Assembly (NCBI GenBank): GCA_964366355.1
Contig: CAYITO010000003.1
Span: 1 to 37,399 of the forward strand
DNA length: 37,399 nt
Source: an uncultured archaeon
Lineage (GTDB): Archaea > Aenigmatarchaeota > Aenigmatarchaeia > CG10238-14 > SCSR01
Direction: 5' to 3'
The notes beneath the pieces were generated by a model. That model was given only the letters and a program-made list of their open reading frames with translations, had not been told where the DNA came from and made no database searches. The position numbers were made by a program, and so were the translations under genes. Of the stretch, positions 8,701 to 37,321 are shown in pieces (position 1 is the stretch's first letter; each line of letters opens with the position of its first letter).

Positions 8701-8917
8701 AAAAAAAGCTGATATAAAATTATCATATTTATTGGCAGTGGTAATTATAATCTTGATTGCTGTAATTGCCTATCTTGTTTTTGTCAAGCCAGTTGAAATA
8801 GCACCCGTCATTGTTACAACAGAAGAAGAAGCAGTTCAAATACAGGAGGATTTAGGCAGTTCTATCTCAGATATCAAAGATGATTTAGAAGGGTTGAAGA
8901 AAAGTCTTGGGAAGTAA
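8693..8917 (+). CDS. Small single-pass membrane protein with acidic helical tail
   Basis: 74 aa. GTG start overlaps the upstream stop by 8 nt. KK-rich N-terminus, TM helix LLAVVIIILIAVIAYLVFV, then an EEEAVQIQEDL...DDLEGLKK tail. Confidence 0.4.
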   Translation: MARKKADIKLSYLLAVVIIILIAVIAYLVFVKPVEIAPVIVTTEEEAVQIQEDLGSSISDIKDDLEGLKKSLGK

Positions 8918-8980
8918 ATTTAGTTTGTGTATCATATCAAAAAATATATTTATAAGGCAAAAAAACAAATTTAAATTAAG

Positions 8981-11497
8981 ATGTATAGACGCCTAGTTAT
9001 CTTTTTAACAGTCTTGATGGTATTGAGTTTCTATTCTATAGCGCCAATAGCGCAAACCGCTACTACAACAAATGTAGACACAGTAATAATCGTTAATGGC
9101 GGTGATGTAAGCACTCTAGATGCTGCAATAGCTGCAGCGATTTCTGCTGATATTGGTGCGCATGTTTTATATACAGAACATGAAGAGGTTCCTGCAGACT
9201 TGCAAACTCAACTAAAGAATCTTGATGCAGAAAATGTTGTTATTTTAGGCGGGCAGTCTGTTGTGTCGGAAAATATCGAGACCTCGCTTCAGGATCTTGG
9301 ATATGATGTTACAAGGTTGCATGGAACTACTGCAACCGGAACCGCTGTTGAAGCGATAGAGTACTTCTACGGTCCTGGGACGTTAGACGAAGTTTCTTTG
9401 GTGAAGTATGAAGGTGATACAGTGCAGGATTATAGCACCATCTTAACTTTGGCAGCAGAATTAGGACAACCAATAATACCAATTCCATCCGACGTTGAAG
9501 GTTTGCCGGGAGAAGTGACTAATTTATTAGCCACTACAGACGTTGAGCAAGTAACTTTAGTTGGTGATTTTGACCAAGAAGCGGCAATAGAGGAAGACTT
9601 GCAGGAGGTTAGAGTTGACGTCGAGACTAAGATAGAAGGAAATATCGATGCAGTAGAAGACCAATTGCAAAACCAAGTGTTGGACACGCTTACTGAAGGC
9701 GATCAGATAGTTTTTGTTGAAGAGGGCGAAGTTGCGCCTGTTTTGCCCGATCACAAGACCTACTTCTACAAGGATGAAAACAATGATGGTCTAGATGATG
9801 AATCAGGAAGCGTACTGGATGGCATAGGATTGGGATTATATGACCAGTATCCTTTCCTCAATAAGGAGTGTAAGTTCGTTGGGGATAATGAAGATGTCCA
9901 AAAAAGATTTGAGGAGGCAATGGAAAGCGCAGGCATACAGGTTTCGGCTGGAAAAGTAGGTGACTCGATAGGGACTGCGTTTACATTCACGAATGAAGAG
10001 GCGGCAAAACTATCCGAACATTTTGCAAAAAAAGAAGAGGAGTTCAAGAATTTGTATGAAAGGAATAAGGGATTGTTTGAGAGTGAGACAACCAAAGCGG
10101 CAGACCAGGCCAAAGCATTCCTTGAGTTAAACAAAGACAAATTATCGCCAACAGAGATTGAACTTGGATACAAATTCTTAGAAGAGCTTGATAAGGGAGA
10201 TGTTCAAAGCGCATGGAAACTATTCCACAAATTTGAAAACCATGTCGAATTTAACGATTATAAGGAAGTCGTAACAGATTCTGCAGAAGTGGCTAGAAGG
10301 GTTGGATTGGAGAAGGCTGATTTGGACAAATTGATTGAAGAATTCGGGGGGAAGGATGTGGCGTTACAGGCAGCTAACCTTGATGCAGGCAAGAAGATTG
10401 GACTTTTGGGTTTGGTTCCACCAGGGCATGAAGAGGCATTCAGAGCTAAAATGCAAGAGTTTATTGCAAGTGGTGTGAAGCCGGAGGACTGGGGCAAGGA
10501 ATTCTCTGAAGAGTATAAAAAAGACGGATATGAACATTATTATGAAGAGGCGAAGGAAAGGCATGACTATTGTGTAACGGCAAAATGCGGATTTGCAGAT
10601 GATTACAAGGATCCGAGCAAGTGGGCAGAAGAGGAGAAAAAGAAATATTTTGAGGAAGGCATAAGACACGAGGGAGAGGCTGTCTTATCTAACCTAGTAA
10701 ACCCAGAAGACTTGAGTGACCCGACAAAAGTAGCGCAGGTAATAAACAGGGTGGATGCTGTAGATTATACATTGCAAAAAGCTGGTGTAACTGATACTCA
10801 TTATCTAAATCCGGAAGATTGGCAAAAGGCTTATCAGACATATGCTACTGAAGGGAAATTGTCTAGTGCCGACATAAAGCAATACGAAGCCACTGTTACT
10901 GCTTACAGGACTTACGAGGCTGCACATCAGGGAGACTTCCATGCCCCAGAGGCTGGAAACTATGATGCAGCCAAAGGGACATTTACTTATGTAGATCCTA
11001 CATCAGGACAAGCGGTTAGTGGAACTTATACTCAAGGGCAATATACTTATACAGATCCCACAACTGGAACTACATACACGGGAACAAACACTGGAGCTGT
11101 TTATGAGCATACTGAGACTGGCTACCACGCTCCGGAAGGTTATTCGCCGCCCACATCATATCCGACACCTCCTGATTATATTACTCCATCGGGAAGTACA
11201 GGAACCACCACACAAACAACAACTTCGACGACTTCAGGCGGCACGTCTACAAGTACTGGATCAGTATATTCATACCCAACACCACAGTCTTATTCCACAC
11301 CATACGGAACCCCCGACTCTTATTCCTCACCATATGGAACACCTGAATCATATTCCTATCCAACACCCCATTCAGGACACTTTGTACTAGTGGACATCCC
11401 AGACTATATAAGATCTGTATTAGAAAGGGCGGGATTTGTGTGCGAGAAAGACCCAACAACCCAGCGATTTACCTGCAGATATGGTCTTCCTGGATAA
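8981..11497 (+). CDS. Secreted acidic surface protein with two CWB2-like (cell-wall-binding-repeat-2-like) units and a Tyr/Thr/Ser/Pro-rich C-terminal region
   Basis: 838 aa with a signal-like N-terminus. VIIVNGGDVSTLDAAIAAAISADIGAHVLYT...VVILGGQSVVS...VTRLHGTTATGTAVEAI matches the CWB2 pattern, and a second degenerate unit follows. TATA-like atatatttataa lies ~30 nt upstream. Confidence 0.75.
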   Translation: MYRRLVIFLTVLMVLSFYSIAPIAQTATTTNVDTVIIVNGGDVSTLDAAIAAAISADIGAHVLYTEHEEVPADLQTQLKNLDAENVVILGGQSVVSENIETSLQDLGYDVTRLHGTTATGTAVEAIEYFYGPGTLDEVSLVKYEGDTVQDYSTILTLAAELGQPIIPIPSDVEGLPGEVTNLLATTDVEQVTLVGDFDQEAAIEEDLQEVRVDVETKIEGNIDAVEDQLQNQVLDTLTEGDQIVFVEEGEVAPVLPDHKTYFYKDENNDGLDDESGSVLDGIGLGLYDQYPFLNKECKFVGDNEDVQKRFEEAMESAGIQVSAGKVGDSIGTAFTFTNEEAAKLSEHFAKKEEEFKNLYERNKGLFESETTKAADQAKAFLELNKDKLSPTEIELGYKFLEELDKGDVQSAWKLFHKFENHVEFNDYKEVVTDSAEVARRVGLEKADLDKLIEEFGGKDVALQAANLDAGKKIGLLGLVPPGHEEAFRAKMQEFIASGVKPEDWGKEFSEEYKKDGYEHYYEEAKERHDYCVTAKCGFADDYKDPSKWAEEEKKKYFEEGIRHEGEAVLSNLVNPEDLSDPTKVAQVINRVDAVDYTLQKAGVTDTHYLNPEDWQKAYQTYATEGKLSSADIKQYEATVTAYRTYEAAHQGDFHAPEAGNYDAAKGTFTYVDPTSGQAVSGTYTQGQYTYTDPTTGTTYTGTNTGAVYEHTETGYHAPEGYSPPTSYPTPPDYITPSGSTGTTTQTTTSTTSGGTSTSTGSVYSYPTPQSYSTPYGTPDSYSSPYGTPESYSYPTPHSGHFVLVDIPDYIRSVLERAGFVCEKDPTTQRFTCRYGLPG
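11288..11368 (+). repeat. In-frame 30-bp tandem repeat, ~2.7 copies (SYSTPYGTPD / SYSSPYGTPE / SYSYPTP)
   Basis: tcttattccacaccatacggaacccccgac / tcttattcctcaccatatggaacacctgaa / tcatattcctatccaacaccc. Confidence 0.85.
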
Positions 11498-11577
11498 GTG
11501 ATAAGTTTTTTGTCAATCTCTAAAATAATTCTATCACTATTTAAAAAATAATTAACTAGATTAACTATAAGATAATT

Positions 11578-14010
11578 GTGCATCACTCTATGTCATTTCA
11601 AATATTTGTCATTGTAATAACATTTTCATTCTTTGGTGTAATTGTTTATGCACATGATTTGAGAGGAACTGTCGAGAAGACAATTGTTGTCACAGATGAC
11701 GGATTTTATCCGGATTTTATCAGTATCCATGCTGGAACAAATGTTACATGGATCAATAATGGTAATGCATTTCATTGGCCAGCCTCTGATGTTCATCCGA
11801 CACATAAAATTTATCCTAGTTCTGGGATTGAAAAATGTGGCATGAGTGAGGCAAAAAATATCCTTGATGCATGCCGTGGGTTGAAAAAAGGTGAGAAATT
11901 TACATTTACTTTTGATAAGATTGGCAGATGGGGCGTGCATGATCACTTATATCCGGGTACTGTAATGGCCATTGAAGTTACAGAAGAACAAAGTAACAGT
12001 TTGCAAAACTTTTTAAGCAGATTATTCAATTTTCTATTAGGTTTTTTCAAGAAGAAAGAAATTATTCAATTCCCATCCTCTGAATATTTCCTCAATCTCA
12101 CTTATTTAGAACAGCAAAAACTGGTTAAAGAACTAGGCAAAAGCAACGCTGAAGAGTCTTGGAAATACTTGAAAAAAACTTTTGCCAGCAATGGCATTAA
12201 ACAAAATCCCCATGAATTTACACATATAGTCGGAAACGAAATTTATCGGCAAAAGGGTTTTGATGGTGTTGTTATCTGCGATCCGACATTTGCTTTCGGT
12301 TGCTATCATGGCGTTACTGAAAAGATGTTGGTGGATTTGGGAATTAATGCGATTCCCAAAATTGAAAATAGCTGCCTTGATATATTTCCTAAACAACCAC
12401 AGTCAGCTGCAAGCTGCATTCACGGCATTGGACATGGCTTGCTTACTTGGAGGGGTTTGGATGTCGGAAGCGCTTTGAAGGATTGTGATTTGCTTACTGA
12501 GCAATATCGTATCTACTGCTATGACGGGGTTTTTATGGAATATAGCTTTAGCGCGCCTAATGGTGCTGTGAAATGGGAATTTTGTGCAAGCTTCGATGAA
12601 AAATACCATCCGCTTTGTGCGAAATACCAGACATCTATTCTATTCAAAAGCGGTTTGAATTTTTCACAATCTGCAAAAGTTTGTGAAGAAGCGCCGAATG
12701 GAATATTGAAAGACAATTGTATATTTGGACTTGGGTTTTCCGCAGCCAATACTGCACAGGGCAATGACAACGAAATAAAAAAACTTTGTAATCTTGTTTC
12801 AAGTAAAGAAGGGCGATACACTTGCATAATTTATGCCGCTAAAGAGGTGATATTTCAAGAATATGCAAACTGGTGGGAGGTTTATAAAAACTTGTGCCAA
12901 GGACTGCCGGAAGATTGGGACGAATTGTGCTTAAACAAAACCAGAGAAACCATTGAAGGGTATAACAAACAAATTCCCTCATCCGAAATACAGCCGATGG
13001 AAATACAACAGATTAAAGAGACGGCCAATTTAACCGAACAAACTAAATTTTATAAAAAACTTATCGAACGTGTGGGGGTAGAACAAGCCCAAGAACATCT
13101 TTATTTTTCTGGGTTGCCATTCACAGGACAAACGCATCTTCTGAATCATGTTTCAGGCGATTATCTCTATGAAACCTATGGCGCTGGCGGACTTGTCAAA
13201 TGCAAGGATTATTTCTTGTCTTCCTGCTATCATGGGTTTATTCTTCACGCCATAGGCAGTAATGGTATAGATAGTATGGACGAAATAATGAATGAATGCA
13301 AGAAATTTGGGGTAACGGTTGTCTCGCAATGCTCGCATGCATTGGGTCATGGACTTTTGGTTTGGGTTGGATATCCTAATCTTCTAAAAGCGCTTGAGTT
13401 ATGTGATAAGATGAATGAAAGAATAGATGATTTCCCAGTATTCAATTGCAGGGATGGTGTGTTTATGGAGAATGTATGGGGTGTCCATGAGGGAAAGCCT
13501 TCACCAGAAAGATGGGTTAAGTCTGATGACCATTTCTACCCTTGCAATGATCCTAGGATAAATCCCAAGCATTTGAACGGATGCTGGTCCAATCAACCAA
13601 CGCTTATGTATCAGATGTTCAAGGGTGATTTGAGGAAAGTTGGCGACGAATGTTTGAAAGTCAAAAATTCCGATCACCAAAAAACTTGTTTCAACGGATT
13701 ATCACGACAGATACATCCACTTACCAAAGGAGATGTCAATTCAACATTCGAACTGTGCAGTCTTCTGCCGCCAGAATGGGTGGACTATTGCACAACTACT
13801 ATAGCGTTATCAGATTTTTCTGTAGGTGGGCGTGATTTGTCATTTAAAATCTGCGCTAAAATCAACGAGTCTGGCAAAGAATCCTGCTACCACAGCCTGT
13901 ATGGTGTCATGTTGGTGTATAGTAACACGGATGAGGAGTATCAGAAATTCTGCAGTGACATTTTAGAAGAGGAATGGAAGAAAGGTTGCATTGCGAATAA
14001 AAGGGCATGA
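11578..14010 (+). CDS. Secreted protein: cupredoxin-like domain plus two copies of an unassigned Cys/His-rich module
   Basis: 810 aa with an N-terminal anchor or signal. Cupredoxin-like block (aa ~30-135): HAGTNVTWINNGNAFHWPASDVHPTH...FTFDKIGRWGVHDHLYPGTVMAIEV. Module copies at aa ~170-460 and ~485-810 share H-x3-H-x-[VS]-G, C-YHG, C-x-H-[GA]-[IL]-GHG and C-x-DGVFME. Confidence 0.8.
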   Translation: MHHSMSFQIFVIVITFSFFGVIVYAHDLRGTVEKTIVVTDDGFYPDFISIHAGTNVTWINNGNAFHWPASDVHPTHKIYPSSGIEKCGMSEAKNILDACRGLKKGEKFTFTFDKIGRWGVHDHLYPGTVMAIEVTEEQSNSLQNFLSRLFNFLLGFFKKKEIIQFPSSEYFLNLTYLEQQKLVKELGKSNAEESWKYLKKTFASNGIKQNPHEFTHIVGNEIYRQKGFDGVVICDPTFAFGCYHGVTEKMLVDLGINAIPKIENSCLDIFPKQPQSAASCIHGIGHGLLTWRGLDVGSALKDCDLLTEQYRIYCYDGVFMEYSFSAPNGAVKWEFCASFDEKYHPLCAKYQTSILFKSGLNFSQSAKVCEEAPNGILKDNCIFGLGFSAANTAQGNDNEIKKLCNLVSSKEGRYTCIIYAAKEVIFQEYANWWEVYKNLCQGLPEDWDELCLNKTRETIEGYNKQIPSSEIQPMEIQQIKETANLTEQTKFYKKLIERVGVEQAQEHLYFSGLPFTGQTHLLNHVSGDYLYETYGAGGLVKCKDYFLSSCYHGFILHAIGSNGIDSMDEIMNECKKFGVTVVSQCSHALGHGLLVWVGYPNLLKALELCDKMNERIDDFPVFNCRDGVFMENVWGVHEGKPSPERWVKSDDHFYPCNDPRINPKHLNGCWSNQPTLMYQMFKGDLRKVGDECLKVKNSDHQKTCFNGLSRQIHPLTKGDVNSTFELCSLLPPEWVDYCTTTIALSDFSVGGRDLSFKICAKINESGKESCYHSLYGVMLVYSNTDEEYQKFCSDILEEEWKKGCIANKRA

Positions 14011-14019
14011 AGCCCATTA

Positions 14020-15234
14020 ATGGTATTTCTAATGGCTCGCAAATCCAGAAACAACGCAGTAAACCTATGGAATTTCATTTTTGTTCTTATAATTATGCTG
14101 ATTGTATTTCTAGCTTTTCCAATGAACCAAAAAACTAATTCAAAGGAATCGGCTTCAAAGGATGGTATAAAAGAATTGACAGCATCGGGCGTCTTAGATA
14201 TATTTGAATGTGGAAGCAACGAAACCTGCATGGATAACGTCTCAGAATTGTTGCTAAAAACAAGAAATGCAAAAGAACTTTTGGCTGAACTGGATGAATC
14301 GGGAAAGAAAGACAGTAGAATATTGATACAATGCCATCCAATTACCCATTCTGTAGGAAGAACTTTATACAAAAAATTATTGGAAGAAAATAAACATATT
14401 GCAGATGTGTTCCAGCAATGCGACCACACATGCCACTCTGGTTGCTTTCATGGCGCGATGGAAAGGGTGTTTTTTTCTGATGGATCATCTGATGGAGAGG
14501 ATCATGTAACACCCCAGATACTTAGAGAAAAAGTGCCGAGTGTTTGCGAGGGTTTTGATCAGGGACTGTCTGGAAATTTAAGATTTCAATGCTTGCATGG
14601 TTTGGGCCATGCAGTTGTTTTCTTCAACGATTATAATCTGATAGATTCTTTGAAATTGTGCGACTTGCTTCCAACCGATTGGGACAGATCTTCATGCCAT
14701 GGTGGAGCTTTCATGGAAAATGTCGTTGCCTCAAACAAAAGCAAAAGATTAGTAAGTAATGATCCGCATTTTCCCTGCAATATGCTGGAAGAAAAATACA
14801 AGAATTCTTGTTACCTTATGCAGACCAGCAGGATGCTTGAATTGGGCTTATCATATGAAAAGATAGGAAAAGAGTGTGAAAATGTTGAGAGTTACAGAAG
14901 CACTTGTATGATTAGTTTGGGTAGGGATGCTAGCAATGATGTCAGAAAGGATCCTAAATCTGCAAAAATTTGCATTGGTTTGCCGACTGAAAATGATAAT
15001 AAAAATTGCATAAGTGGCTTGGTTTATGCTTTGTCTGATAACTCGTGGGATGGTAGATACGCATTCCCCTATTGTGATGATCTGCCGGCTGATTATATTG
15101 ACTACTGTTATAAAACTACAATAGCTTATCTTATGCATTCACTCTTCATAGATAAAACAGCTCTCATAAAAAGTTGCCAAGCTCATTCATCTTATTATGA
15201 TTGTATAAATACTGTAAATAACTGGGCAAGCTAG
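14020..15234 (+). CDS. Secreted or membrane-anchored protein with one copy of the same Cys/His-rich module
   Basis: 404 aa with an N-terminal TM helix. CHPITHSVG, CDHTCHSGCFHG, FQCLHGLGHAVV and SSCHGGAFME are collinear with the two modules of 11578..14010. Confidence 0.8.
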   Translation: MVFLMARKSRNNAVNLWNFIFVLIIMLIVFLAFPMNQKTNSKESASKDGIKELTASGVLDIFECGSNETCMDNVSELLLKTRNAKELLAELDESGKKDSRILIQCHPITHSVGRTLYKKLLEENKHIADVFQQCDHTCHSGCFHGAMERVFFSDGSSDGEDHVTPQILREKVPSVCEGFDQGLSGNLRFQCLHGLGHAVVFFNDYNLIDSLKLCDLLPTDWDRSSCHGGAFMENVVASNKSKRLVSNDPHFPCNMLEEKYKNSCYLMQTSRMLELGLSYEKIGKECENVESYRSTCMISLGRDASNDVRKDPKSAKICIGLPTENDNKNCISGLVYALSDNSWDGRYAFPYCDDLPADYIDYCYKTTIAYLMHSLFIDKTALIKSCQAHSSYYDCINTVNNWAS

Positions 15235-19687: not shown

Positions 19688-19782
19688 TGGGCCCAGTGGG
19701 ATTTGAACCCACGACACACTGGTTAAGAGCCAGCTGCTCTGCCATCCTGAGCTTTACCCACAACTTTAGTTGTTATGGGCCC
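19688..19782 (-). tRNA. tRNA-Lys(CUU): tRNA-Lys (anticodon CUU) with a ~21-nt non-canonical intron between the acceptor stem and the D stem
   Basis: Minus strand: GGGCCCA-TA-[ACAACTAAAGTTGTGGGTAAA]-GCTC AGGATGGCA GAGC A GCTGG CTCTTAA CCAGT GTGTC GTGGG TTCAAAT CCCAC TGGGCCC A. All four stems pair once the insert is removed. No encoded CCA. Confidence 0.85.
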
Positions 19783-24615: not shown

Positions 24616-26478
24616 CTAGTTCATCCTACTTTTGAAATAATCTCTAGTCTCCTTGTCAACAAAATAAACGTAGCATCCTTTCATCCCACGGGTCATAAGA
24701 GTTCTGTAAGTGTTTTTTATTATTGCATCCGCTTTTTTATCTGCACCCTTTGGATGCTCTTTAAAGTCCTTCTTATATCCATGCAAAGATTTGTCTGTTT
24801 TTGCACGTTTATTCGGAGAAGTCACTATTTTTCCATTTCTTACTACTAAGTCTGGACCTATGATCACACCAACATAATCGACTTCAAGACCTTGACAAGT
24901 ATGAATACATCCTACTTCACTTACAGATTTCGGTGAAATTATCCAAACGTTTCCATCACTTGCGAGATTCCATCTCATCTCAAAGTCATATTCTGGAATT
25001 ATAATATCTTTTAGATTCTTATTCTTCTTACTAATCCAGTCCCAACAATACCCTGCGACTAGTCGAGCTTTATTATTGATTTCATTTTTCTTGAAAATTA
25101 AATCTCGTAAGTCGTTAGGCGATTCAATAATTGTGAAATCATATTTTATTCCTTCCAATGTCGTATTTGCCGTTTCTCTTATTTGGAGTGTGTTATCGAG
25201 CCATGCCAAATACCCATCTGAGCCATTACAACGAAATTGTGATTCTAGCTTTAGAGTCTGAACTTTTGCACCAATTTTATCAGCCCATTTCTCAATTTCT
25301 TCTTTTTCACCAATATCATCCCAGGTAACTTTTTGGTTTTCATCAATGAAAAATATCGAAGACTTTGATGCTTCAATTATTTCCTTTATCTGGTTTTCTC
25401 CTATATTCTTGAACATACCTGATTTTTCATTAAGTCTATGTGCTTCGTCTACTATAAGAGAATCAAAAGTATTAGTTTTACAATTTACAAAAGAGCCTGA
25501 GCTAGTAAACATGTTTGAAAACTGGGTTTTTCTAAGCGTACCAGTGAGTTTGCTTTCAAAGACTGCTCTAGGTGCAGAGTTTTTCGTAACATATCGGGTA
25601 TTTAATCCGAGTTTAGTAATTGCAACAAGCAAATTAATTGCTATTACTGATTTTCCAGTCCCGGGTCCTCCTTCTACAATTAAAACATTTTTATTGGTAT
25701 TACTAGATCTTTTTGCTAAAGCTAATGCAGTTTCATAGACTATTTTTTGATCGTCAATTAGAACAAACTCTTGATTTCCTTTAAGCATAGACGACAGACT
25801 ATCAGCAAGGTCTTTTGAAGGTCTTATTTCGCTGTTTTCAATTCTATAAAGAGTATTTCTCTTATCTCCAAATTTTACGTATTTAGCAATAAATTCTTGC
25901 AACTTTGATTTTTCACCTTTGCAGAAAACTGGTGCCTTTTGTAAATAATCGAAATAGAAAGTATTTCTAATGACATTGTTTTCAACATAATTGTGCAAAT
26001 ATGCACATGGTTCTAAACCTATTTTTCCTTCGTATACAATTACATTGAATCCTTGAAGTAGAGTTGAATAAGACCATGCTTGATATGATGGATGAAGTGC
26101 CTCGCTTGGTCCACGTTTAAAGTGAGTTAGAACCATTGCATCTTTTTCTGTGAGTTGAATGTCGGTCCATTGTTTTAGTTCGATAATTATAACTTTTTCT
26201 TGATGGTTTTCATCTTCTCCTGTAACGATAAAATCGATTCTGTTTTTTGTTCTTGCAATGGAATATTCAATAGCCACACCCGAATCGTCAGGTATCATAT
26301 TTGTATTCATTACATGATACATTGCATTACCAATAGAATTTGCCCAAGATTCATATTCAGAACTCCCAGGTTTCAAGTCTATATTTAATTTTTCTTTTAC
26401 ATATTCTCTAATTTTGTCTTCTATTCCGTTGGAAGCATCTTCTAGAAAACCAGTTTTTGTTGCTTTATAAACTATCAT
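24616..26478 (-). CDS. DUF2075-type P-loop helicase-like ATPase with N-terminal PD-(D/E)xK-like nuclease module
   Basis: Walker A: VLIVEGGPGTGKSVIAINLL. Walker B: SLIVDEAHRL. SF1 motif-VI-like CIHTCQGLEVDYVGVIIG. DUF2075-type tail YRTLMTRGMKGCYVYFVD. N-terminal D...E-x-K in RIDFIVTGEDENHQEKVIIIELKQW. I place the start at ATG 26478-26476 (MIVYKATK), 1 nt after the upstream stop; the track start is 26511. Confidence 0.8.
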   Translation of the reverse strand: MIVYKATKTGFLEDASNGIEDKIREYVKEKLNIDLKPGSSEYESWANSIGNAMYHVMNTNMIPDDSGVAIEYSIARTKNRIDFIVTGEDENHQEKVIIIELKQWTDIQLTEKDAMVLTHFKRGPSEALHPSYQAWSYSTLLQGFNVIVYEGKIGLEPCAYLHNYVENNVIRNTFYFDYLQKAPVFCKGEKSKLQEFIAKYVKFGDKRNTLYRIENSEIRPSKDLADSLSSMLKGNQEFVLIDDQKIVYETALALAKRSSNTNKNVLIVEGGPGTGKSVIAINLLVAITKLGLNTRYVTKNSAPRAVFESKLTGTLRKTQFSNMFTSSGSFVNCKTNTFDSLIVDEAHRLNEKSGMFKNIGENQIKEIIEASKSSIFFIDENQKVTWDDIGEKEEIEKWADKIGAKVQTLKLESQFRCNGSDGYLAWLDNTLQIRETANTTLEGIKYDFTIIESPNDLRDLIFKKNEINNKARLVAGYCWDWISKKNKNLKDIIIPEYDFEMRWNLASDGNVWIISPKSVSEVGCIHTCQGLEVDYVGVIIGPDLVVRNGKIVTSPNKRAKTDKSLHGYKKDFKEHPKGADKKADAIIKNTYRTLMTRGMKGCYVYFVDKETRDYFKSRMN

Positions 26479-26479
26479 T

Positions 26480-26842
26480 TTAAATCCCATTATACTTTTT
26501 GTTTGACCCACGTGTTTTACTAGCAGGATATTTTAAGTCGTTTTTCTTCATTTTTTTCTCAAATTCTATTGATAAGTCTATGTTATTCATTTGAGCCAAC
26601 CTCAATAGGAAATACAAAATATCTGCCATTTCTTCTGATATCTCCATTTTTTTATCAGGCTTTTCAAGCATTTCTTTAATTTGGTCCTGTGATTTGAACC
26701 TGAAATGTTCCAATAATTCAGATGATTCTGTTATTATGCCTATGGCCAAGTCCTTCGCATTGTGATACTGGTTCCAATCACGGTCTTCACAGAATTTCTT
26801 TACAGCATCCTTTAGTTCTTGTATAGTAGTTTGGGAGTCCAT
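26480..26842 (-). CDS. All-alpha NTP pyrophosphohydrolase, MazG / DCTPP1 (RS21-C6)-like
   Basis: 120 aa. FCEDRDWNQYHNAKDLAIGIITESSELLEHFRFKS follows the DCTPP1/MazG-like pattern F-x2-eRdW-x-qfH-x-p-x-nL...E-x-gEL-x-E-x-FqWk. Second metal-binding helix: EEMADILYFLLRLA. Confidence 0.75.
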   Translation of the reverse strand: MDSQTTIQELKDAVKKFCEDRDWNQYHNAKDLAIGIITESSELLEHFRFKSQDQIKEMLEKPDKKMEISEEMADILYFLLRLAQMNNIDLSIEFEKKMKKNDLKYPASKTRGSNKKYNGI

Positions 26843-28566: not shown

Positions 28567-28947
28567 ATGGCTGTATGGCATGGGGAACGCGGAAGGACAC
28601 CGACAGGCGGAAAGATAGTTTCTACTCGGAAGAAAAGGAAGTATGAGCTGGGTTCTTTGCCGTTGCTCACAAAATTGGGAAGCGAAAAGCGAATCACAGT
28701 TATGGGGAAAGGCGGAAATAGCAAGGTCAAGGCAGCAAATGCGGAATTTGTCAATGTTGTTGATAAGAAGAGCAATATTGTGAAAAAAGTTAAAATTCTG
28801 GGCATTTTGGAAAATCCAGCCAACCTGCACTATGTTAGAAGGAACATTATTACAAAAGGAACTGTGGTAAATACCGAGATGGGAAAGGCAAAAATTACAT
28901 CGCGCCCGAGTCAGCACGGCGTGGTTAGCGGAATCTTAGTCGAATAA
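28567..28947 (+). CDS. rps8e: Ribosomal protein eS8 (S8e)
   Basis: 126 aa. GERGRTPTGGKIVSTRKKRKYELG...ENPANLHYVRRNIITKG...AKITSRPSQHGVVSGILVE. TATA-like aagaatataaatac lies ~25 nt upstream. Confidence 0.9.
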   Translation: MAVWHGERGRTPTGGKIVSTRKKRKYELGSLPLLTKLGSEKRITVMGKGGNSKVKAANAEFVNVVDKKSNIVKKVKILGILENPANLHYVRRNIITKGTVVNTEMGKAKITSRPSQHGVVSGILVE

Positions 28948-28989
28948 ATAATTTGAAGGCCATCTCAATGATCTTCCCAAGTAATTGTT

Positions 28990-29745
28990 ATGATTGACAT
29001 TCATTGCCACTTGACATTTCCTGGATTGGACGAGATCAAAGATACAGTAATCCTAGAATCTAAAAAATCCATGCGTGCAGTCATAAATTGTGGCTTGACA
29101 GGTTTTTATGAAAAAACTTTAGATGTTCAAAAAAAATACGAAGGTTTTATTTTTACATCACTTGGAATACATCCGGATGATATAGTAAAAATGACAGATA
29201 AGGAAATAGAAAAAAATCTTGAATTCATACAAAGTCATACCGATGATGTTGTTGCATTGGGAGAAATAGGGTTGGATTATTATTGGGTGACTGTTCGCAA
29301 GCAAAATGAGCGATGCAAAGAAGTTTTTGTTAAATGCTTGGATATTGCCAAAGACGAAAACCTGCCGGTAATTTTGCATAGCAGAAGAGCTGAGGAAGAT
29401 GTGTTCAACATCATCAAGGAGAATGGGATCAAGCGCGCGGTGTTCCATCATTTCTCTGGAAACATGACGTTAGCCAAGCAGATAATAGAAAGCGGCTATT
29501 ATATTTCAATACCGACTATCATAAAAACTTCCAAAAATTTAAAGAAGATAGGAAAAACTTTTCCTTTGGATAGACTTATGACAGAAACAGATTCTCCATT
29601 CAACTCACCAACTAAGGATAAGACGAATTATCCTTATAATGTGAAATTGACTTTGATGGAAATTGCAGGATTAAGGAACGAGTCATTTGAAACTGTTGAT
29701 GTTGCTACAACTGATAATGCTTTGAAATTTTTTGATTTAATTTAA
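28990..29745 (+). CDS. TatD-family metal-dependent hydrolase
   Basis: 251 aa. MIDIHCHLTF, GEIGLDYYW, PVILHSRRAEED, VFHHFSG, ETDSPF. Confidence 0.9.
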   Translation: MIDIHCHLTFPGLDEIKDTVILESKKSMRAVINCGLTGFYEKTLDVQKKYEGFIFTSLGIHPDDIVKMTDKEIEKNLEFIQSHTDDVVALGEIGLDYYWVTVRKQNERCKEVFVKCLDIAKDENLPVILHSRRAEEDVFNIIKENGIKRAVFHHFSGNMTLAKQIIESGYYISIPTIIKTSKNLKKIGKTFPLDRLMTETDSPFNSPTKDKTNYPYNVKLTLMEIAGLRNESFETVDVATTDNALKFFDLI

Positions 29746-30771: not shown

Positions 30772-33177
30772 TTAAGTTTCTATTTTATACCTTAAAAAGG
30801 CTCCTATACCACCCAACTCTTTGAATTGCTTTCCTTCAGCAGTATCTGTAGATATTATTTCAACCTTTGCCCCACTACTAACAGCTTTTTCCGAAACTGC
30901 ATCAACAAGCTCTTCCTGAGACTGGACTTCAAACTTTTTGCCGCAAGTTTCGCAAACCTGATTTCCTATGGCATTTTTGGGCAATTCCTTTTCAACATAA
31001 TGTCCATTTTGGCATCTCAGATTTACTTTGACCCAATCAAAAGCTTCTGAAACGAGCAATATATCAACTGCATTCAAATCCAAAGCTTTCATCGTTTCTG
31101 TATATCCATAAGAAACATTCCCCCCCTTCTGCAATTCCGTTAAAAACTTCTGCATCAAATCCCTTTCTTTCATTATTGCCGCCTTTTCCAGCAAATCTTC
31201 CGAACGTTTTACCAATTCCTCCAATCCATATTCGTCCGTATAACCAACATCCTTGATCCCCAAAATTTTATTTTTCAGCTGATAGTTCAAATAATCCTTT
31301 TCTGCAAATCTGTCCTTAACCGGACCTGGACCCCCAACAATAATTCCCTTCAAATTTTCTTCCTGAAGTAGGGTTTGGGAAGCTGTCTCGCCAACCTTTG
31401 TTAAAAATGCGTTTATAGCATCCTCTCTCAATCTATCATATCGACCTTGAGAATTATGAACAATTAGGCCATTGGCAACGAAAGTATTGGTGCCCGGAAC
31501 GTGCAAATCATAGAATTCTCCAATAGAATTTAACTCTTTCTTTTCCTTAAGAACAGTAGTTATAGTGTTGGATTTATGGATATTTTCCAAAAGTCTCAAA
31601 GTGTCTTTATTTTTCAATTTTCTTCTAATTTCTTTTAAAAAACGTCCAAAAGGAGGATAACCAATATTTCTTTTACCAGCTAGGAACATTCCATATTTCT
31701 TGAAATGCTCTTTCTTAAAACCTTCTTTCTCCAATAATTTTCTCAAAAATCTACCAGATATAGGAACTCTCGTAGACTTCCCACTTCTATATGACTTTAA
31801 TATCGATATTAGTTTTTTTTCCTTTTTTAGAGAAGAGAATCCTATGGCTTTCTTAAAACTTTGAATATACATTGGATTTGTTATGCGTAATTCATAGCGA
31901 TCAAACTTATCAGGACCTCTCATACTTGCAACTATCTCGAATCTAATCAAAAGCAATTGTAATTTTCGAATTATTTGTTCATTTGTCATTCTTAAGCCCA
32001 CTCCAGTTTTATCAACATATCCTTCGGCATCAAACAGACCTCTCAAAAATAATGCTAGTTTTCTTAATGGAAGCTTCAGTATCCTAGAATCTATATCCTT
32101 TAGCCTTCTATGTCGGCAAATTTTTCGAAAATCTGATAATAAGAAATCAACAAACGATTTTTTGTATAATCTCAGTTCATATGAGTTTCTTCTTTTACGG
32201 ATTATTGCTTCCTTGTCTATAAGCTTTTCTGCAATTTTTTTATAGACTTTCAGCAGTTGTATATCCTTATCGTAAAGTATAGTACTGTTTCCATCTATAG
32301 TACCATCTCCCGTCATATATCCTAAAAACTGTGCCAAACTTTTATCAATAAGCGGATCGTCACTATTGTTCGTTTCAAGATACGATGTTTGTAAAAGCAA
32401 GTCCCCAGGCCTTAGTTCCGCAACACTTTTTTCCTCTATGCCATTTATGCCTACTACAAAAACCTTATGCTCAGGCGTAACTACTATAGAGTTCGCGGGC
32501 TCCTGAAATGTTAATCTGTAAGATAATTTCGCCTTTCTTTTGAATAGTTCGAAAGAATTATTAAACACAGGCTTAAAATCTTTGAAAGAGTAGGATAATA
32601 TTTTTTTGTCGCTGGAAAGTTCTTTTATAGGTATGATATCACCACTTTCAAGCTGTAGTAGAGTGTTTTCATCCACACACATTCCTCCTTTAACTGTCTT
32701 GGATGGAACAGTAGATTCCAAATTCTTTAGTTGAATTATCCTCTTGCCTTTCAGCAATGCTATGTTTGCCTCGCGCGCATCCAATACAATCAATCCGTAA
32801 ACTTCCTTCTCCTTCACCATTTCCTCCAAGGGTTCTAGAACAAAGACCTGATCGCACCAATAAACCTTGGTTTCAAGTTTCTCGGCAGGTTCTAAGCTCC
32901 ATAATCTGATATCTTCCCTGCCTTCTACCGGCGATGCGTTCCCTGAAAAGACCACCAAACCATTTTTAGGCGTTGCCCTGAACAGTCTCAAGTGCTGAAT
33001 AATTTTATCCAATGCAGCAAGAACATTTTTCCTGGTACCTTTTGATTTTATGTTCGAAGCGGTTCCCTGCTCTTCCTTCAACTGACTTATTGAATCAATT
33101 AAGTTCCCGCCAGCAGGAACATAGACAGAAACAAGTTCGGTATGCTTCCCGCGGATGGATTTTAGTTCCTTTATCAA
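30772..33177 (-). CDS. prf1: Archaeal peptide chain release factor aRF1, interrupted by a 409-aa intein
   Basis: NIKS motif (TASNIKSKG). YxCxxxF motif (YWCDQVF). GGQ-loop context VPSKTVKGG-M|intein|SQGRYDRLR. C-terminal domain with a CxxxxH...CxxC mini-domain. Exteins are 166 + 226 = 392 aa. Confidence 0.9.
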   Translation of the reverse strand: MIKELKSIRGKHTELVSVYVPAGGNLIDSISQLKEEQGTASNIKSKGTRKNVLAALDKIIQHLRLFRATPKNGLVVFSGNASPVEGREDIRLWSLEPAEKLETKVYWCDQVFVLEPLEEMVKEKEVYGLIVLDAREANIALLKGKRIIQLKNLESTVPSKTVKGGMCVDENTLLQLESGDIIPIKELSSDKKILSYSFKDFKPVFNNSFELFKRKAKLSYRLTFQEPANSIVVTPEHKVFVVGINGIEEKSVAELRPGDLLLQTSYLETNNSDDPLIDKSLAQFLGYMTGDGTIDGNSTILYDKDIQLLKVYKKIAEKLIDKEAIIRKRRNSYELRLYKKSFVDFLLSDFRKICRHRRLKDIDSRILKLPLRKLALFLRGLFDAEGYVDKTGVGLRMTNEQIIRKLQLLLIRFEIVASMRGPDKFDRYELRITNPMYIQSFKKAIGFSSLKKEKKLISILKSYRSGKSTRVPISGRFLRKLLEKEGFKKEHFKKYGMFLAGKRNIGYPPFGRFLKEIRRKLKNKDTLRLLENIHKSNTITTVLKEKKELNSIGEFYDLHVPGTNTFVANGLIVHNSQGRYDRLREDAINAFLTKVGETASQTLLQEENLKGIIVGGPGPVKDRFAEKDYLNYQLKNKILGIKDVGYTDEYGLEELVKRSEDLLEKAAIMKERDLMQKFLTELQKGGNVSYGYTETMKALDLNAVDILLVSEAFDWVKVNLRCQNGHYVEKELPKNAIGNQVCETCGKKFEVQSQEELVDAVSEKAVSSGAKVEIISTDTAEGKQFKELGGIGAFLRYKIET
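31453..32679 (-). mobile_element. Intein with LAGLIDADG homing-endonuclease domain (aRF1 residues 167-575)
   Basis: Block A CVDENTLLQLESGDIIPIKEL. Block B VVTPEHKVFV. LAGLIDADG motifs LAQFLGYMTGDGTI and LALFLRGLFDAEGYV. Terminal FVANGLIVHN followed by +1 Ser. A sampled intein line is 27% GC, versus 42% for a sampled extein line. Confidence 0.9.
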
Positions 33178-33253
33178 TTTCTTTAGCTTTATAGCTTCCT
33201 CATCTTTAAATACAACACACCTTTTTTATTAACTTAAGTTTGATATTTAAATT

Positions 33254-33841
33254 ATGCACAAAGCTCTTAAAATTCTAATAATCTCGAGCATGTTTTACAG
33301 TTTCTCCGTGGGCTTGCTTGCCCCGATATTCGCAATATTTGTCCAGAGCATAGGCGGCGGAATACTCGAAGCCAGCAGGGCTTGGTTCCTTTATACGCTG
33401 TTAATAGGCATAACCATAGTAACTTTTGGAAGGATTGAAGACAAGGTCAGCAAAAGAGAAATGTTCCTGGTAGGTAGAATACTGTTTACATTGTCCGCTG
33501 CAGGATATTTTTTCGTGGAAAATATTGAGCACCTGTATTTCATTCAAATAATTCTCGCCATATCCGTGGCAATTATAGATCCTGCATTTACGGCTCTGTT
33601 TTCAAGTTCTTTGAGAAAAGGCAAGGAAAGTACAGAATGGGCAACCTGGGAGGGCGCTACATACATAGTAATGGCAGTGGGTGCGATTATAGGTGGGGTA
33701 GTAGCAGATACATTCGGATTCAAGCCGTTATTCGCAATGATGGCAATAAGCGGGGCATTGAGCACTTTAATTGCCACCATGTTAATAAGGAAAATCATGT
33801 GGAAAGCTATTGTGGCGAGATTTAGACACATCAAATTTTAA
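33254..33841 (+). CDS. Six-helix membrane protein resembling one half of an MFS transporter
   Basis: 195 aa with ~6 TM helices. MFS motif-A-like FGRIEDKVSKREMFL sits between helices 2 and 3. Confidence 0.6.
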   Translation: MHKALKILIISSMFYSFSVGLLAPIFAIFVQSIGGGILEASRAWFLYTLLIGITIVTFGRIEDKVSKREMFLVGRILFTLSAAGYFFVENIEHLYFIQIILAISVAIIDPAFTALFSSSLRKGKESTEWATWEGATYIVMAVGAIIGGVVADTFGFKPLFAMMAISGALSTLIATMLIRKIMWKAIVARFRHIKF

Positions 33842-33843
33842 GC

Positions 33844-36168
33844 TCAAGGTTTAATGTTGTGCATTGCCTTCAGATCTTTTTCAAAAATTTCCAGCTCTTT
33901 CGGAATTCCCATCTTAATTTCGTCCTTCAAAGATATCTTTAGATACTTTTTTTCATTCCAAACTTTCGAGTCGAAGTCCAGAATAGATTTTGTGAGTTTG
34001 TTCAATTTCTTGTCCCATTTTACCTCTGGGAATTCTTCTAGATGGATGGATTTCTTGCTGTACAGTTCCCTCCAGATATGATCTGTCATGAATGGTGTGA
34101 TCGGTGATAGAAGTTTCAGAATTGTATTCAGAACTAAATGCAGAGTAAATTGTACAGACTTTTGCTCGCTCTTGCTGAATCCTTGGCCATATGCCCTGGT
34201 TTTCACCATTTCTAAATAATGGTCTGCAAAAATATTCCAAGTGAATTCCCTGATTTTGTTTGAAGGTATGAAAAAGTTGAAATCCCGATAGCCCTCGTTA
34301 CAACTCTCTACAAGATTGCCCAATTCACCCAATATCCATTTATCTGAGTTGGTCAATTTTGCACTCTTGTGCTGAGGAAACATTGATATGAATCGTGCTA
34401 CATTCCAAAACTTTGTCAGGAATTTGCTTCCAGCTTCGATTCTTTGCTCCGAACATCTGAAGTCAGAGCCCAATGATACTTCCGTAGCATTCCAAAATCT
34501 GAAGTTATCCGCGCCGTATTTCTCGAGTATGGGATAAGGATCTATCACATTTCCCTTGCTCTTGCTCATTTTCTCCCCCCTTTCATCCACACCATATCCC
34601 ATTATCCATGCATGCCTCCATGCCATCTCACCAGTTAGTTGGTAGCATCTGAGCAATGTGTAGTACAGCCATGTACGGACGATGTCCTTGCTCTGCGGTC
34701 TTAGGGTATTCGGGTATGTTTTCTTGAAAAATTTGTCATCGGTTTTATATTTGGATATGAACAATGGAGATATGCTCGAATCTACCCAAGTGTCGAAAGT
34801 TCTCTCCTCACCAACAAATTCCTTGCCACCACAATTTTCACATGTGTTGAATGGAGCTTTTTCTTTCCAGGGCTGGTAGTATTTTCCCGGTTTTGGTATT
34901 TGGGGTCTTTTGCAGTCTTTGCAATACCAGACAGGTATCTCTGTCGCATAGACCCTTCTTCTCGATATGGGCCAATCGATGCTGACTGAATCAATCCAAT
35001 CTATCAGCAACTGCCTATGGACTTCGGGATGGAACTTCAAAGCTTCTGCAAACATTCTCATCTGTTTCACATAATCCAATTGCTTTAGATAAAATTCTGG
35101 CATGGCAATAATTTCTATTGGGTTTTTGCTTCTTTCGCATATCGGAGTCCTGTGCAAAATTTTTTCTTTCTTGACTACCAATCCACTTTTATCCAAATCC
35201 TCTATGATAGTCCTTCTTGCTTCATTCACGCGCATTCCAGAATATTTCCCAGAATTGTGAGTAAATCTTCCGTCGATGTTTATTGCAATAATTTCTTCCA
35301 GCTTTAATTCTCTGAAAAGCCTGACATCATGGAAATCACCATAGCTGCATATCATCACTGCGCCAGTTCCGAATTCGGCCTTGGCTTCTTTGTTTGGGAT
35401 TATAGGAATTGTGCGATTGTACATAGGCAATATTGCAGTTTTGCCATGCAATTTTTTGTATCTATTGTCATCAGGATGAACTATCACTGCCTGGCATGAG
35501 CACAAAAGTTCTGGCCTTGTGGTTGCAATAATCAAATCTTCACCAGTCTCCTTAACCTTGAATTTTACATAGACCAATTCTGTCGGCAATTCTTGATACA
35601 GAACCTCAGCATCAGCTATAGTAGTTCTGCACACTGTGCAGTAATTGTTGGGTCGTGTATCCTCGTAGATCAGTCCTCTATTCCACAATTCTATGAAAGT
35701 TGTTTGAGTCAGTCTTCTGTATTCTGTTGAATCTGTGCGATAGTAGTTTTCGAAATCCCCGGATAGGCCCATCGTTTTCATTATCTTTATCATTTCAGCC
35801 TCCAAATCATCCAACGCAGTCTTGCAATATTCTATAAATTTCTCTCTCGGCGTCAAGTTTATGGAAATATCAAATTTCTTTTCTGTGTAAATTTCTACAG
35901 GCAAACCATTCCTGTCAATGCCTATGGGGAATAGAGTTTCGTGCCCTAGCATCCTGGCAGTGCGGGCTATCATGTCTATTTGGGAATAATGGGCTGCAGC
36001 CCCAATATGCCAAGGGCGTCCCGAAGGATATGGTGGCGGCGTGTCTATTACAAAAATCTTTTTCTTGGATTTGGCATTAAATCTGTAAACACGCTCCTTT
36101 TCCCAGAGTTTCCTGACCTTCTCCTCCAATTCATGATTCCATATGGTTTCTTCAATCTGGGGTTTCAT
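33844..36168 (-). CDS. valS: Valyl-tRNA synthetase (archaeal type)
   Basis: IDTPPPYPSGRPWHIGAAAHY (HIGH region), DWPISRRRVYATEIPVWYC, KMSKSKGN. At ~774 aa the size fits ValRS, not IleRS or LeuRS. I place the start at ATG 36168-36166 (MKPQIEETIW) rather than the track start 36225. Confidence 0.85.
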   Translation of the reverse strand: MKPQIEETIWNHELEEKVRKLWEKERVYRFNAKSKKKIFVIDTPPPYPSGRPWHIGAAAHYSQIDMIARTARMLGHETLFPIGIDRNGLPVEIYTEKKFDISINLTPREKFIEYCKTALDDLEAEMIKIMKTMGLSGDFENYYRTDSTEYRRLTQTTFIELWNRGLIYEDTRPNNYCTVCRTTIADAEVLYQELPTELVYVKFKVKETGEDLIIATTRPELLCSCQAVIVHPDDNRYKKLHGKTAILPMYNRTIPIIPNKEAKAEFGTGAVMICSYGDFHDVRLFRELKLEEIIAINIDGRFTHNSGKYSGMRVNEARRTIIEDLDKSGLVVKKEKILHRTPICERSKNPIEIIAMPEFYLKQLDYVKQMRMFAEALKFHPEVHRQLLIDWIDSVSIDWPISRRRVYATEIPVWYCKDCKRPQIPKPGKYYQPWKEKAPFNTCENCGGKEFVGEERTFDTWVDSSISPLFISKYKTDDKFFKKTYPNTLRPQSKDIVRTWLYYTLLRCYQLTGEMAWRHAWIMGYGVDERGEKMSKSKGNVIDPYPILEKYGADNFRFWNATEVSLGSDFRCSEQRIEAGSKFLTKFWNVARFISMFPQHKSAKLTNSDKWILGELGNLVESCNEGYRDFNFFIPSNKIREFTWNIFADHYLEMVKTRAYGQGFSKSEQKSVQFTLHLVLNTILKLLSPITPFMTDHIWRELYSKKSIHLEEFPEVKWDKKLNKLTKSILDFDSKVWNEKKYLKISLKDEIKMGIPKELEIFEKDLKAMHNIKP

Positions 36169-36223
36169 AATCGAGCCTTTAATTTTAATAGTTGGTGATG
36201 AGAAATATAATAACTTGATAGGC

Positions 36224-37321
36224 ATGCGAAAATTTGAATACTATCCCCACATGATAAAGTTCTTTTCCGCATCAGCCATTTGGAGCATAGCCAATTACTT
36301 GCCCATATTCGCCAAGTCGCTTGGCATATCAGATATGGATATCGGGGTATTGGCTACTTTGTATGCAACAGCGATGTTCATCTCAACATACGCATTCGGA
36401 AGGCTTGCGGATATAATCGGAAGGAGGAAATTGATAATTTTTGGATTGTTGCTATCTTCAATTTCATTTTTACTTTATGCATATGCGAAAGATTTTGATA
36501 CGTTGCTTTCAATTAGAATTTTAAGCGGCATTGGAATAAGTATGCAGGCATCCGCAGTAGTAGCATATGCTCACGATGCAGGCCATAAGCTTGGGAAATT
36601 GACTTCCTTCGAATCTTTGGGCGTGGCTGTTGGCAGCATCTTGGTCGGAATAATTGCTTTGTATTTTGACATAATTTCAATATTTTTAATCAGTGCCGCT
36701 TTCTTCCTTTTCGCATTTTTAGTGTCGCTTAGGCTTGAGAAGGTCAATTACAAAAAAATCAATGGGCAGATGCCAGTTTTTCCACATCATATTTTAAAGA
36801 AAAATCTGCCCGTCTATATTTCATTTTTTATACGCCATGCAGCGGCCAATTCCATATGGGTTTTTTGGGGACTGTATTTGTTGCAGCTGGGCGCAGATCT
36901 GTTCTTGATAGGCTTGGCAATGGCTGTAAATACATTTACGCAATTTCTCGTGATGTTTTTTGTTGCAGATAAAATAAATGTGAAGAAATTGGTATCTGTG
37001 GGAACGCTTTTGACAGCGGTTACATTCTTCATTTTCGGGATATCAACAAGCTTCTGGCAAATTTTGGGAGCCCAGTTAATTCTTGGCATATCTTGGGGAT
37101 TCCTATATATAGGTTCTATTAGATGGGTAACTGATGACTCAAAAGAAAAGGCCACCAGCATAGGTTTGTTAAATTCGTTTATCAATTTGGCTCAGCTGAC
37201 CGGACCTTTGATAGCTACATTAGTTATAGGATTTGGTGGGTATAGGATGATTATGTATGCAGGGGCTGCAATGGCATTCTGCAGTTTCATCGCTTTCGAT
37301 ATACTTGCAAAAAGCAGATAA
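36224..37321 (+). CDS. MFS transporter
   Basis: ~365 aa with ~12 TM helices. Motif A: FGRLADIIGRRKLIIFG. I place the start at ATG 36224 (MRKFEYYP); the track start 36143 would overlap valS. Confidence 0.8.
   Translation: MRKFEYYPHMIKFFSASAIWSIANYLPIFAKSLGISDMDIGVLATLYATAMFISTYAFGRLADIIGRRKLIIFGLLLSSISFLLYAYAKDFDTLLSIRILSGIGISMQASAVVAYAHDAGHKLGKLTSFESLGVAVGSILVGIIALYFDIISIFLISAAFFLFAFLVSLRLEKVNYKKINGQMPVFPHHILKKNLPVYISFFIRHAAANSIWVFWGLYLLQLGADLFLIGLAMAVNTFTQFLVMFFVADKINVKKLVSVGTLLTAVTFFIFGISTSFWQILGAQLILGISWGFLYIGSIRWVTDDSKEKATSIGLLNSFINLAQLTGPLIATLVIGFGGYRMIMYAGAAMAFCSFIAFDILAKSR

Follow-up and report, generated by a model that had tools for sequence, protein, structure and literature searches.

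A methionine at the catalytic glutamine position in an intein-split archaeal release factor aRF1 and in its intein-free relatives

The window analyzed here, a whole stretch of 37,399 nucleotides from contig CAYITO010000003.1 of an uncultured archaeon of the Aenigmatarchaeota lineage, carries on its minus strand a gene for the class-I release factor aRF1, in which an intein interrupts the catalytic loop at its tip and the conceptually spliced protein has GGM where GGQ is expected. No motif other than GGQ is common to the unrelated bacterial and archaeo-eukaryotic release factors. It is regarded as invariant and essential, and methylation of its glutamine occurs in all three domains of life; the role of the glutamine side chain has been debated for more than two decades, whether in catalysis, in water positioning, or in the exclusion of other nucleophiles. 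The intein in the present gene is ordinary in kind, and the unexpected element is the catalytic loop devoid of the canonical glutamine. The gene and its parts are arranged as follows.

30772..33177, minus strand: aRF1 precursor gene, 801 amino acids plus stop, with a TTG start as listed (Pfam and TIGR03676 matches)
32680..33177, minus strand: N-extein, residues 1–166, comprising domain N (NIKS, YWCDQVF) and the first half of domain M, ending in KGGM
33043–33054, minus strand: NIKS motif, residues 42–45
32842–32862, minus strand: YWCDQVF (the YxCxxxF motif), residues 106–112
32680..32682, minus strand: ATG codon of Met166, at the position of the catalytic glutamine of GGQ, which is also the −1 residue of the intein
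31453..32679, minus strand: class-1 intein of 409 amino acids with Cys1, block B, His-Asn, and two LAGLIDADG motifs
32677–32679, minus strand: TGT codon of intein Cys1 (Cys167 of the precursor)
32467–32478, minus strand: intein block B, TPEH, precursor residues 234–237
32299–32337, minus strand: LAGLIDADG motif 1, FLGYMTGDG
32017–32058, minus strand: LAGLIDADG motif 2, FLRGLFDAEG
31453–31455, minus strand: intein Asn409 (the terminal His-Asn being precursor residues 574–575)
30772..31452, minus strand: C-extein, residues 576–801 plus stop, comprising the rest of domain M and domain C
31450–31452, minus strand: TCT codon of Ser+1 (Ser576)
31447–31449, minus strand: CAA codon of Gln+2

The open reading frame (ORF) is matched by the Pfam models eRF1_1, eRF1_2, eRF1_3, Intein_splicing, and LAGLIDADG_3, and its junctions read NLESTVPSKTVKGGM / CVDENTLL ... 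FVANGLIVHN / SQGRYDRLRED (in short form, VPSKTVKGGM/CVDEN...LIVHN/SQGRYDRLR). Conceptual splicing yields an aRF1 of 392 amino acids that scores 463.1 bits on the TIGR03676 aRF1_eRF1 equivalog model (cutoff 234.7) and 85 bits on the pelota model, is matched by the aRF1 of Protein Data Bank (PDB) entry 4af1 with an E-value of 4e-80, and is 40–50% identical to canonical archaeal aRF1s. An earlier note on this DNA had claimed that both stop-codon decoding motifs, NIKS and YxCxxxF, are intact, and both are present; it had also placed a methionine where the catalytic glutamine belongs, which is borne out by a gap-free alignment of the loop with Halobacterium aRF1 4af1 (KGGQSAQRFARLR) and eRF1 4crn (RGGQSALRFARLR), in which Met166 falls on the glutamine and the tripeptide is GGM, with the two glycines kept. 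The span of 31453–32685 given for the intein in that note also takes in the methionine and glycine codons, the intein proper being 31453–32679, and its remark that the intein is richer in AT than the exteins holds in direction and not in size, with a GC content of 32.9% against 40.4% (38.7% for the window) instead of 27% against 42%. Alternative intein boundaries that restore GGQ, namely GG/QGRY, were rejected: they make the loop two residues shorter, and intein-free orthologues read GGMSQ. All three stop codons terminate ORFs within the window.

The start of the gene has some peculiarities of its own. The 13 in-frame codons upstream of the listed TTG (ending FKDEEAIKLKK; 33175–33216, minus strand) are similar to the N-terminal sequences of homologues with an ATG start, that of locus L001 for example, and ATG, GTG, and TTG are all absent from these codons in the window and likewise in loci L008 and L010. 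A TTTAAA box lies 27 nucleotides upstream of the TTG, and a leaderless TTG or a non-canonical start is possible.

Relatives of the gene were found by searching with the full precursor and, separately, with the spliced sequence, and were drawn from NCBI, JGI, ENA, and Logan. The full precursor retrieved more than 100 intein-bearing aRF1s labelled mainly as Aenigmarchaeota, and the spliced sequence retrieved mainly intein-free aRF1s of 372–428 amino acids, at identities of up to 83% over full length and up to 93% for partial matches. The intein-free relatives read KGGMSQxRYDR contiguously; in four of them (P0121, P0122, P0123, and P0126) the junction STVPSKTVKGGMSQGRYDRLREDAI is the same as the predicted spliced junction of the window, STVPSKTVKGGM-SQGRYDRLREDAI, which validates the intein boundaries claimed at the outset and makes the methionine native to the mature factor. 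Among 328 proteins with a placeable motif, a sample biased toward relatives of the window, the third motif residue is methionine in 196 (110 of them without an intein), glutamine in 97, tryptophan in 25, phenylalanine in 7, serine in 2, and tyrosine in 1. A survey of relatives for the same intein and its −1 residue, which the earlier note had proposed, gave 159 inteins at this site. Cys1, His-Asn, and Ser+1 are present in every one of them; the −1 residue varies among Q, M, W, F, Y, and S and is glutamine in 52. GGM, initially taken for a peculiarity of one intein-bearing gene, is independent of the intein and is a lineage-wide trait of Aenigmarchaeota, together with GGW, GGF, and GGY. Nor is the loss of glutamine confined to this lineage, because two "Candidatus Nanoarchaeia" metagenome-assembled genomes (MAGs), represented by L063 (JAQUOT010000001.1) and L072 (JBAZJB010000001.1) on contigs of 536 and 766 kb, carry an intein-free aRF1 with GGFSQ; outside Aenigmarchaeota, it arose independently.

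Two further variations were observed among these sequences. The aRF1-like proteins P0316 and P0329 have GGS-SA loops without any loop glutamine, and one of them has an intein at the same site. In addition, NIKS, which is kept in the window, is replaced by NVKD in 21 of 214 non-Gln aRF1s, P0190 included, and NVKS and NIKD also occur.

The genes on either side of aRF1 place it within a conserved neighborhood.

33844..36225, minus strand: valyl-tRNA synthetase gene valS, conserved upstream neighbour of aRF1 (NF009687, 922 bits)
28567..29745, plus strand: genes for ribosomal protein S8e and TatD, conserved downstream neighbours

The order valS-aRF1-(NYN)-tatD-S8e is common to the GGM loci L001, L008, and L010 (the last intein-free), to the GGW locus L003 on a 605-kb contig, and to the GGQ loci L005, L006, and L007 from related MAGs; hence, the non-Gln genes stand at the ancestral aRF1 locus. 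They are under strong purifying selection, the ratio of nonsynonymous to synonymous substitutions (dN/dS) of the exteins being 0.078 in comparison with L009 (dS 0.46) and 0.054 in comparison with L008. The Kimura distance to eight canonical outgroup aRF1s is 1.06 for GGM sequences, 1.12 for GGW sequences, and 1.13 for neighbouring GGQ clades. Within the loop, the K, G, G, S, and R residues are invariant in all 214 non-Gln sequences compared, and the 11-residue loop segment ranks as the 24th most conserved of 383 segments of that length.

The number of aRF1 copies was assessed indirectly. A profile search of genome contigs with a mixed alignment (A1), incomplete MAGs included, gave no second aRF1 in any one assembly among the best 80 loci, which belong to 80 different assemblies, although a divergent copy could escape such a search; 26 of these loci have non-Gln loops, and those in MAGs labelled Aenigmatarchaeota comprise 15 GGW, 5 GGM, and about 17 GGQ. 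Likewise, no contig-length fingerprint was common to 38 long non-Gln contigs (52–939 kb) and the 120 top-ranking relatives of an Aenigmarchaeota aRF1 of the GGQ type. Within the window itself, 37 kb of the genome with 26 ORFs, neither a second aRF1 nor the Gln methyltransferase pair Mtq2 and Trm112 was found. In the GGW locus L003, a methyltransferase adjacent to tatD (13829–14419, minus strand) was considered as Mtq2 and set aside: it is an orthologue of MJ0882 (PDB 1dus, E-value 2e-56), has an NPPI motif, and falls below the HemK/Mtq2 cutoffs. In view of the two negative tests, the conserved gene order, and the selective constraint, it is unlikely that a canonical copy lies hidden elsewhere, and the suggestion that a second, canonical aRF1 exists while the copy in the window decays finds no support.

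The history of the loop was followed on a neighbour-joining tree built from 290 spliced exteins after masking of the two motif columns. A large clade of about 206 sequences with M, W, F, or Y is nested in GGQ-bearing Aenigmarchaeota-like sequences, and isolated non-Gln lineages elsewhere on the tree are represented by P0287 (W), P0340 (F), P0336 and P0118 (F and W), P0311 (W), and P0329 (S). On this tree, Fitch parsimony requires at least 7 changes between glutamine and non-glutamine; the minimum is 14 for the identity of the residue and 50 for the presence or absence of the intein. A glutamine at position +2 occurs in 218 of 229 loops with M, W, F, or Y, as opposed to 17 of 97 GGQ loops. Because SQ is present in every independent M, W, or F lineage (P0287, P0340, P0336/P0118, P0311, and the main clade) and GGQSQ sequences adjoin some of them, the pattern suggests a path from GGQSx through GGQSQ to GG[MWFY]SQ. 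In the AF2 structure model of the intein-free P0121 (pLDDT 80), G164, G165, M166, and S167 form the last part of the loop, and the next helix begins with Q168.

On balance, the evidence leans slightly toward the gene being the orthologous, functional, and probably sole aRF1 of an Aenigmarchaeota (DPANN) archaeon in which Gln+2 takes over the role of the side chain. The 801-residue precursor would be made first, and the 409-residue intein would excise itself by means of Cys1, the TxxH motif, His-Asn, and Ser+1, joining Met166 to Ser576 and giving the 392-residue aRF1 with the loop KGGMSQGRYDR; until then, with the intein interrupting its catalytic loop at the tip, the precursor is presumably inert. 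The glutamine of GGQ was replaced in this lineage by a hydrophobic residue, methionine here and tryptophan, phenylalanine, or tyrosine in sister clades, while the two glycines, the following serine, and the arginine were kept invariant. The spliced product is predicted to release peptides, with peptidyl-tRNA still hydrolysed by the GG backbone together with the main-chain NH of the third residue, and Gln+2 may do what the canonical side chain contributed, positioning or selecting water. A precedent is found in the Vms1-like peptidyl-tRNA hydrolases aVLRF-1 and acVLRF-1 of the aeRF-1 superfamily, the catalytic motif of which is GGxSQ (Burroughs and Aravind 2019, PMC6514570).

Several observations weigh against this assignment. 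Gln+2 is not strictly required, because 11 of the 229 non-Gln loops are without it (GGMSA in seven, GGMSS in two, and GGWSA in two), as are the two GGS-SA loops. GG and R-[FY]-x-R stand exactly as far apart as in canonical loops, so that the loop would need re-registering for Gln+2 to reach the canonical spot. Moreover, the tree is a simple neighbour-joining tree without support values, and the single-copy status rests on indirect tests of the best 80 loci and incomplete MAGs. Compensation by the downstream glutamine, raised as a possibility in the earlier note, gains real comparative support from the counts, from the recurrence of the association in independent lineages, and from the GGxSQ precedent, but the loops just listed show that it does not hold throughout. 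Apart from the manner of compensation, it is probable that whole DPANN lineages, namely most of the sampled Aenigmarchaeota and, with GGF, some Nanoarchaeia, rely for the termination of translation on a single class-I release factor without the "universal" glutamine, having a hydrophobic residue at that position and a glutamine usually two residues downstream, sometimes none.

A second explanation, possible but held only tentatively, is that the factor is functional and needs no glutamine at all: the geometry of the GG backbone and the amide of the third residue would catalyse the reaction, the hydrophobic residue would fill the pocket for N5-methyl-Gln in the peptidyl-transferase centre, and Gln+2 would be helpful or a historical passenger; as a corollary, the Mtq2/Trm112 methylation system might be unnecessary. 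Glutamine side-chain mutants of bacterial release factors keep substantial activity, and only proline is known to abolish it. The same direction is indicated by the occurrence of loops free of glutamine in several sub-clades, in full-length and otherwise conserved proteins (P0149 lies on a 521-kb contig), and by the replacements M, W, F, and Y, all of which are hydrophobic or aromatic. The backbone amide of the glutamine, moreover, has been described as the catalytic group for hydrolysis (PMC6742477). However, Gln+2 is found in 95% of non-Gln loops and in about 18% of GGQ loops, and its return in each independent Met, Trp, or Phe lineage is not expected of a passenger.

It is unlikely, in turn, that this aRF1 decodes stop codons while being hydrolytically weak or dead like Dom34, with a second aRF1 or another peptidyl-tRNA hydrolase releasing the peptide. 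Loss of the glutamine is the criterion of inactivity for Dom34 and many baeRF-1 families (PMC6514570), only 37 kb of the genome is visible, and the tests for a second copy are indirect; yet the locus is the one occupied by GGQ genes, the loop is highly conserved with its GG, S, and R invariant where inactive families have poorly conserved loops (PMC6514570), no rate acceleration accompanies dN/dS values of 0.05–0.08, and neither the 80 assemblies nor the long contigs disclosed a second copy.

The two remaining explanations have next to no probability. The −1 residue of an intein influences the rate of splicing, and the methionine lies exactly at the junction, which could mean that it was selected to favour splicing at a cost to release activity, as the earlier note had contemplated; this is refuted by the 110 intein-free GGM proteins, and the 52 inteins with glutamine at −1 show, with the other residues tolerated there, that methionine is not demanded by the site. 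A sequencing or assembly error or a decaying pseudogene, suggested by nothing further than the unusual motif itself, is just as improbable and can be excluded, as the codon is ATG in all four alleles read as DNA (from four independent assemblies), methionine recurs in 196 independent clusters at 90% identity from the four databases, in agreement with the earlier judgement that a base error was improbable, and the frame is intact under strong purifying selection.

The intein is a separate selfish element that recently moved between diverged hosts. It scores 63 bits on Intein_splicing (cutoff 35.8) and 65.9 bits on LAGLIDADG_3, both of its LAGLIDADG motifs retain their acidic residues, and among solved structures it stands closest to archaeal VMA inteins and PI-PfuI. 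The intein of the window and that of L008 share 95% identity (dS 0.18, dN/dS 0.117), whereas the exteins of the two are 82% identical in protein and about 75% in nucleotide sequence (dS about 2); along the gene, nucleotide identity is about 75% in the exteins, jumps to about 95% in the intein, and is about 92% for some 60 nucleotides on each flank. One sample (ERZ27245926) holds both the intein-containing allele L008 and the intein-free allele L010 of the same locus, the latter reading AAGGGGGGAATG/AGTCAAGGTCGA at the insertion site. Alleles with the intein have TCT as the Ser+1 codon, and empty alleles have AGC or AGT. The jump in identity across intein and flanks, the mixed alleles in one sample, and the difference in the Ser+1 codon together point to recent homing by an active endonuclease, and the LAGLIDADG endonuclease targets this highly conserved site of aRF1. 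As to the variety of inteins at the site, many of about 480–570 amino acids add an XRE-type helix-turn-helix domain (PF01381) to LAGLIDADG (P0032, P0045–P0049, P0057, P0059, P0061, P0062, and others), and 42 of the 159 are mini-inteins of fewer than 200 amino acids without an endonuclease.

A literature search returned no paper on an intein in aRF1 or on a natural replacement of GGQ in aRF1, with Aenigmarchaeota, DPANN, and GGxSQ included among the subjects sought; the superfamily survey of Burroughs and Aravind (2019) surfaced and describes neither. In that survey, the di-glycine is absolutely conserved and a conserved glutamine serves as the criterion for catalytic activity (PMC6514570). Databases already list such sequences as "peptide chain release factor aRF-1" and, by automatic annotation at JGI, as "eRF1/intein/homing endonuclease", and rules based on the motif would label these factors inactive. 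If whole DPANN lineages do depend on such a sole factor, termination in vivo can dispense with the canonical glutamine side chain and with its N5-methylation, and evolution can re-register the catalytic loop. Natural GGM, GGW, and GGF aRF1s, with the intermediates GGQSQ, GGMSQ, and GGMSA, are ready variants for probing the role of the glutamine; they bear on whether a glutamine displaced by two positions can function in the active site and on whether methyl-Gln can be replaced by a hydrophobic residue. The finding also bears on the simplification of translation in reduced DPANN genomes, for example through a possible loss of Mtq2/Trm112. In the intein, moreover, a widespread and currently mobile allele occupies the catalytic tip of an essential translation factor, which would be usable only once spliced.

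Elsewhere in the window, a 195-residue, half-size ORF resembling the major facilitator superfamily (MFS) lies between valS and aRF1 (33254–33841, plus strand) and is probably a real gene and not a fragment, because it is conserved in three related loci (5265–5852 in L008 and 1769–2356 in L010 being the other two). A full MFS gene at 36143–37321 overlaps the 5′ end of valS by 83 nucleotides. A tRNA at 19688–19759 (minus strand) is an Rfam match of 45.7 bits with no ARAGORN call. A helicase resembling Schlafen group 3 (24616–26842, minus strand; 631 amino acids, E-value 5e-108) overlaps a MazG-like gene, and the pair may form a defence or nucleotide-surveillance module. At 6886–15234 on the plus strand, four consecutive large ORFs (604, 838, 810, and 404 amino acids) with CARDB or CWB2-type domains only, or with no Pfam match, probably encode surface proteins.

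Among known systems, the inserted element compares most directly with archaeal LAGLIDADG inteins, such as those of VMA/A-ATPase (7qsu, 7qss) and PI-PfuI (1dq3). These have in common with it the class-1 arrangement of Cys1, TxxH, His-Asn, and Ser+1, the two LAGLIDADG motifs, an insertion point in an essential protein at its best conserved catalytic site, a patchy distribution, and evidence of homing. The difference lies in the host and site, aRF1 after the third residue of GGQ, which were not found in the literature searched.

Dom34/Pelota and other aeRF-1 paralogues without the glutamine resemble the window protein in having no glutamine at the canonical position. Catalytically dead relatives such as Dom34 have poorly conserved loops (PMC6514570), and Pelota is without NIKS and GG, whereas the loop of the type found in the window is among the best conserved segments of the protein.

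With the VLRF-1 proteins, the spliced protein has the motif alone in common, GGMSQ fitting GGxSQ, and the VLRF-1 loops demonstrate that the aeRF-1 fold can present a glutamine two residues after the di-glycine. In contrast to the full three-domain aRF1 of the window, aVLRF-1 is without the eRF1_3/Pelota domain and has an N-terminal coiled coil, acVLRF-1 is without the stop-codon domain, and the VLRF-1 loop is longer; on the acVLRF1_NCBI model the window protein scores 34 bits, against a cutoff of 125, so that it is no member of that group and the resemblance is convergent.

The closest comparison is with canonical aRF1 and eRF1 (TIGR03676; PDB 4af1, 3agk, and 1dt9), with which the window protein has in common the three domains, NIKS, YxCxxxF, the GG, the serine, and Arg-[FY]-x-Arg at identical spacing, and the orthologous locus. 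It differs from them in having methionine (in sister clades tryptophan, phenylalanine, or tyrosine) for the glutamine, with a glutamine usually two residues on, and in the intein that its gene carries between the third motif residue and the serine. The protein is an aRF1 orthologue by descent that departs from the catalytic signature of its family.

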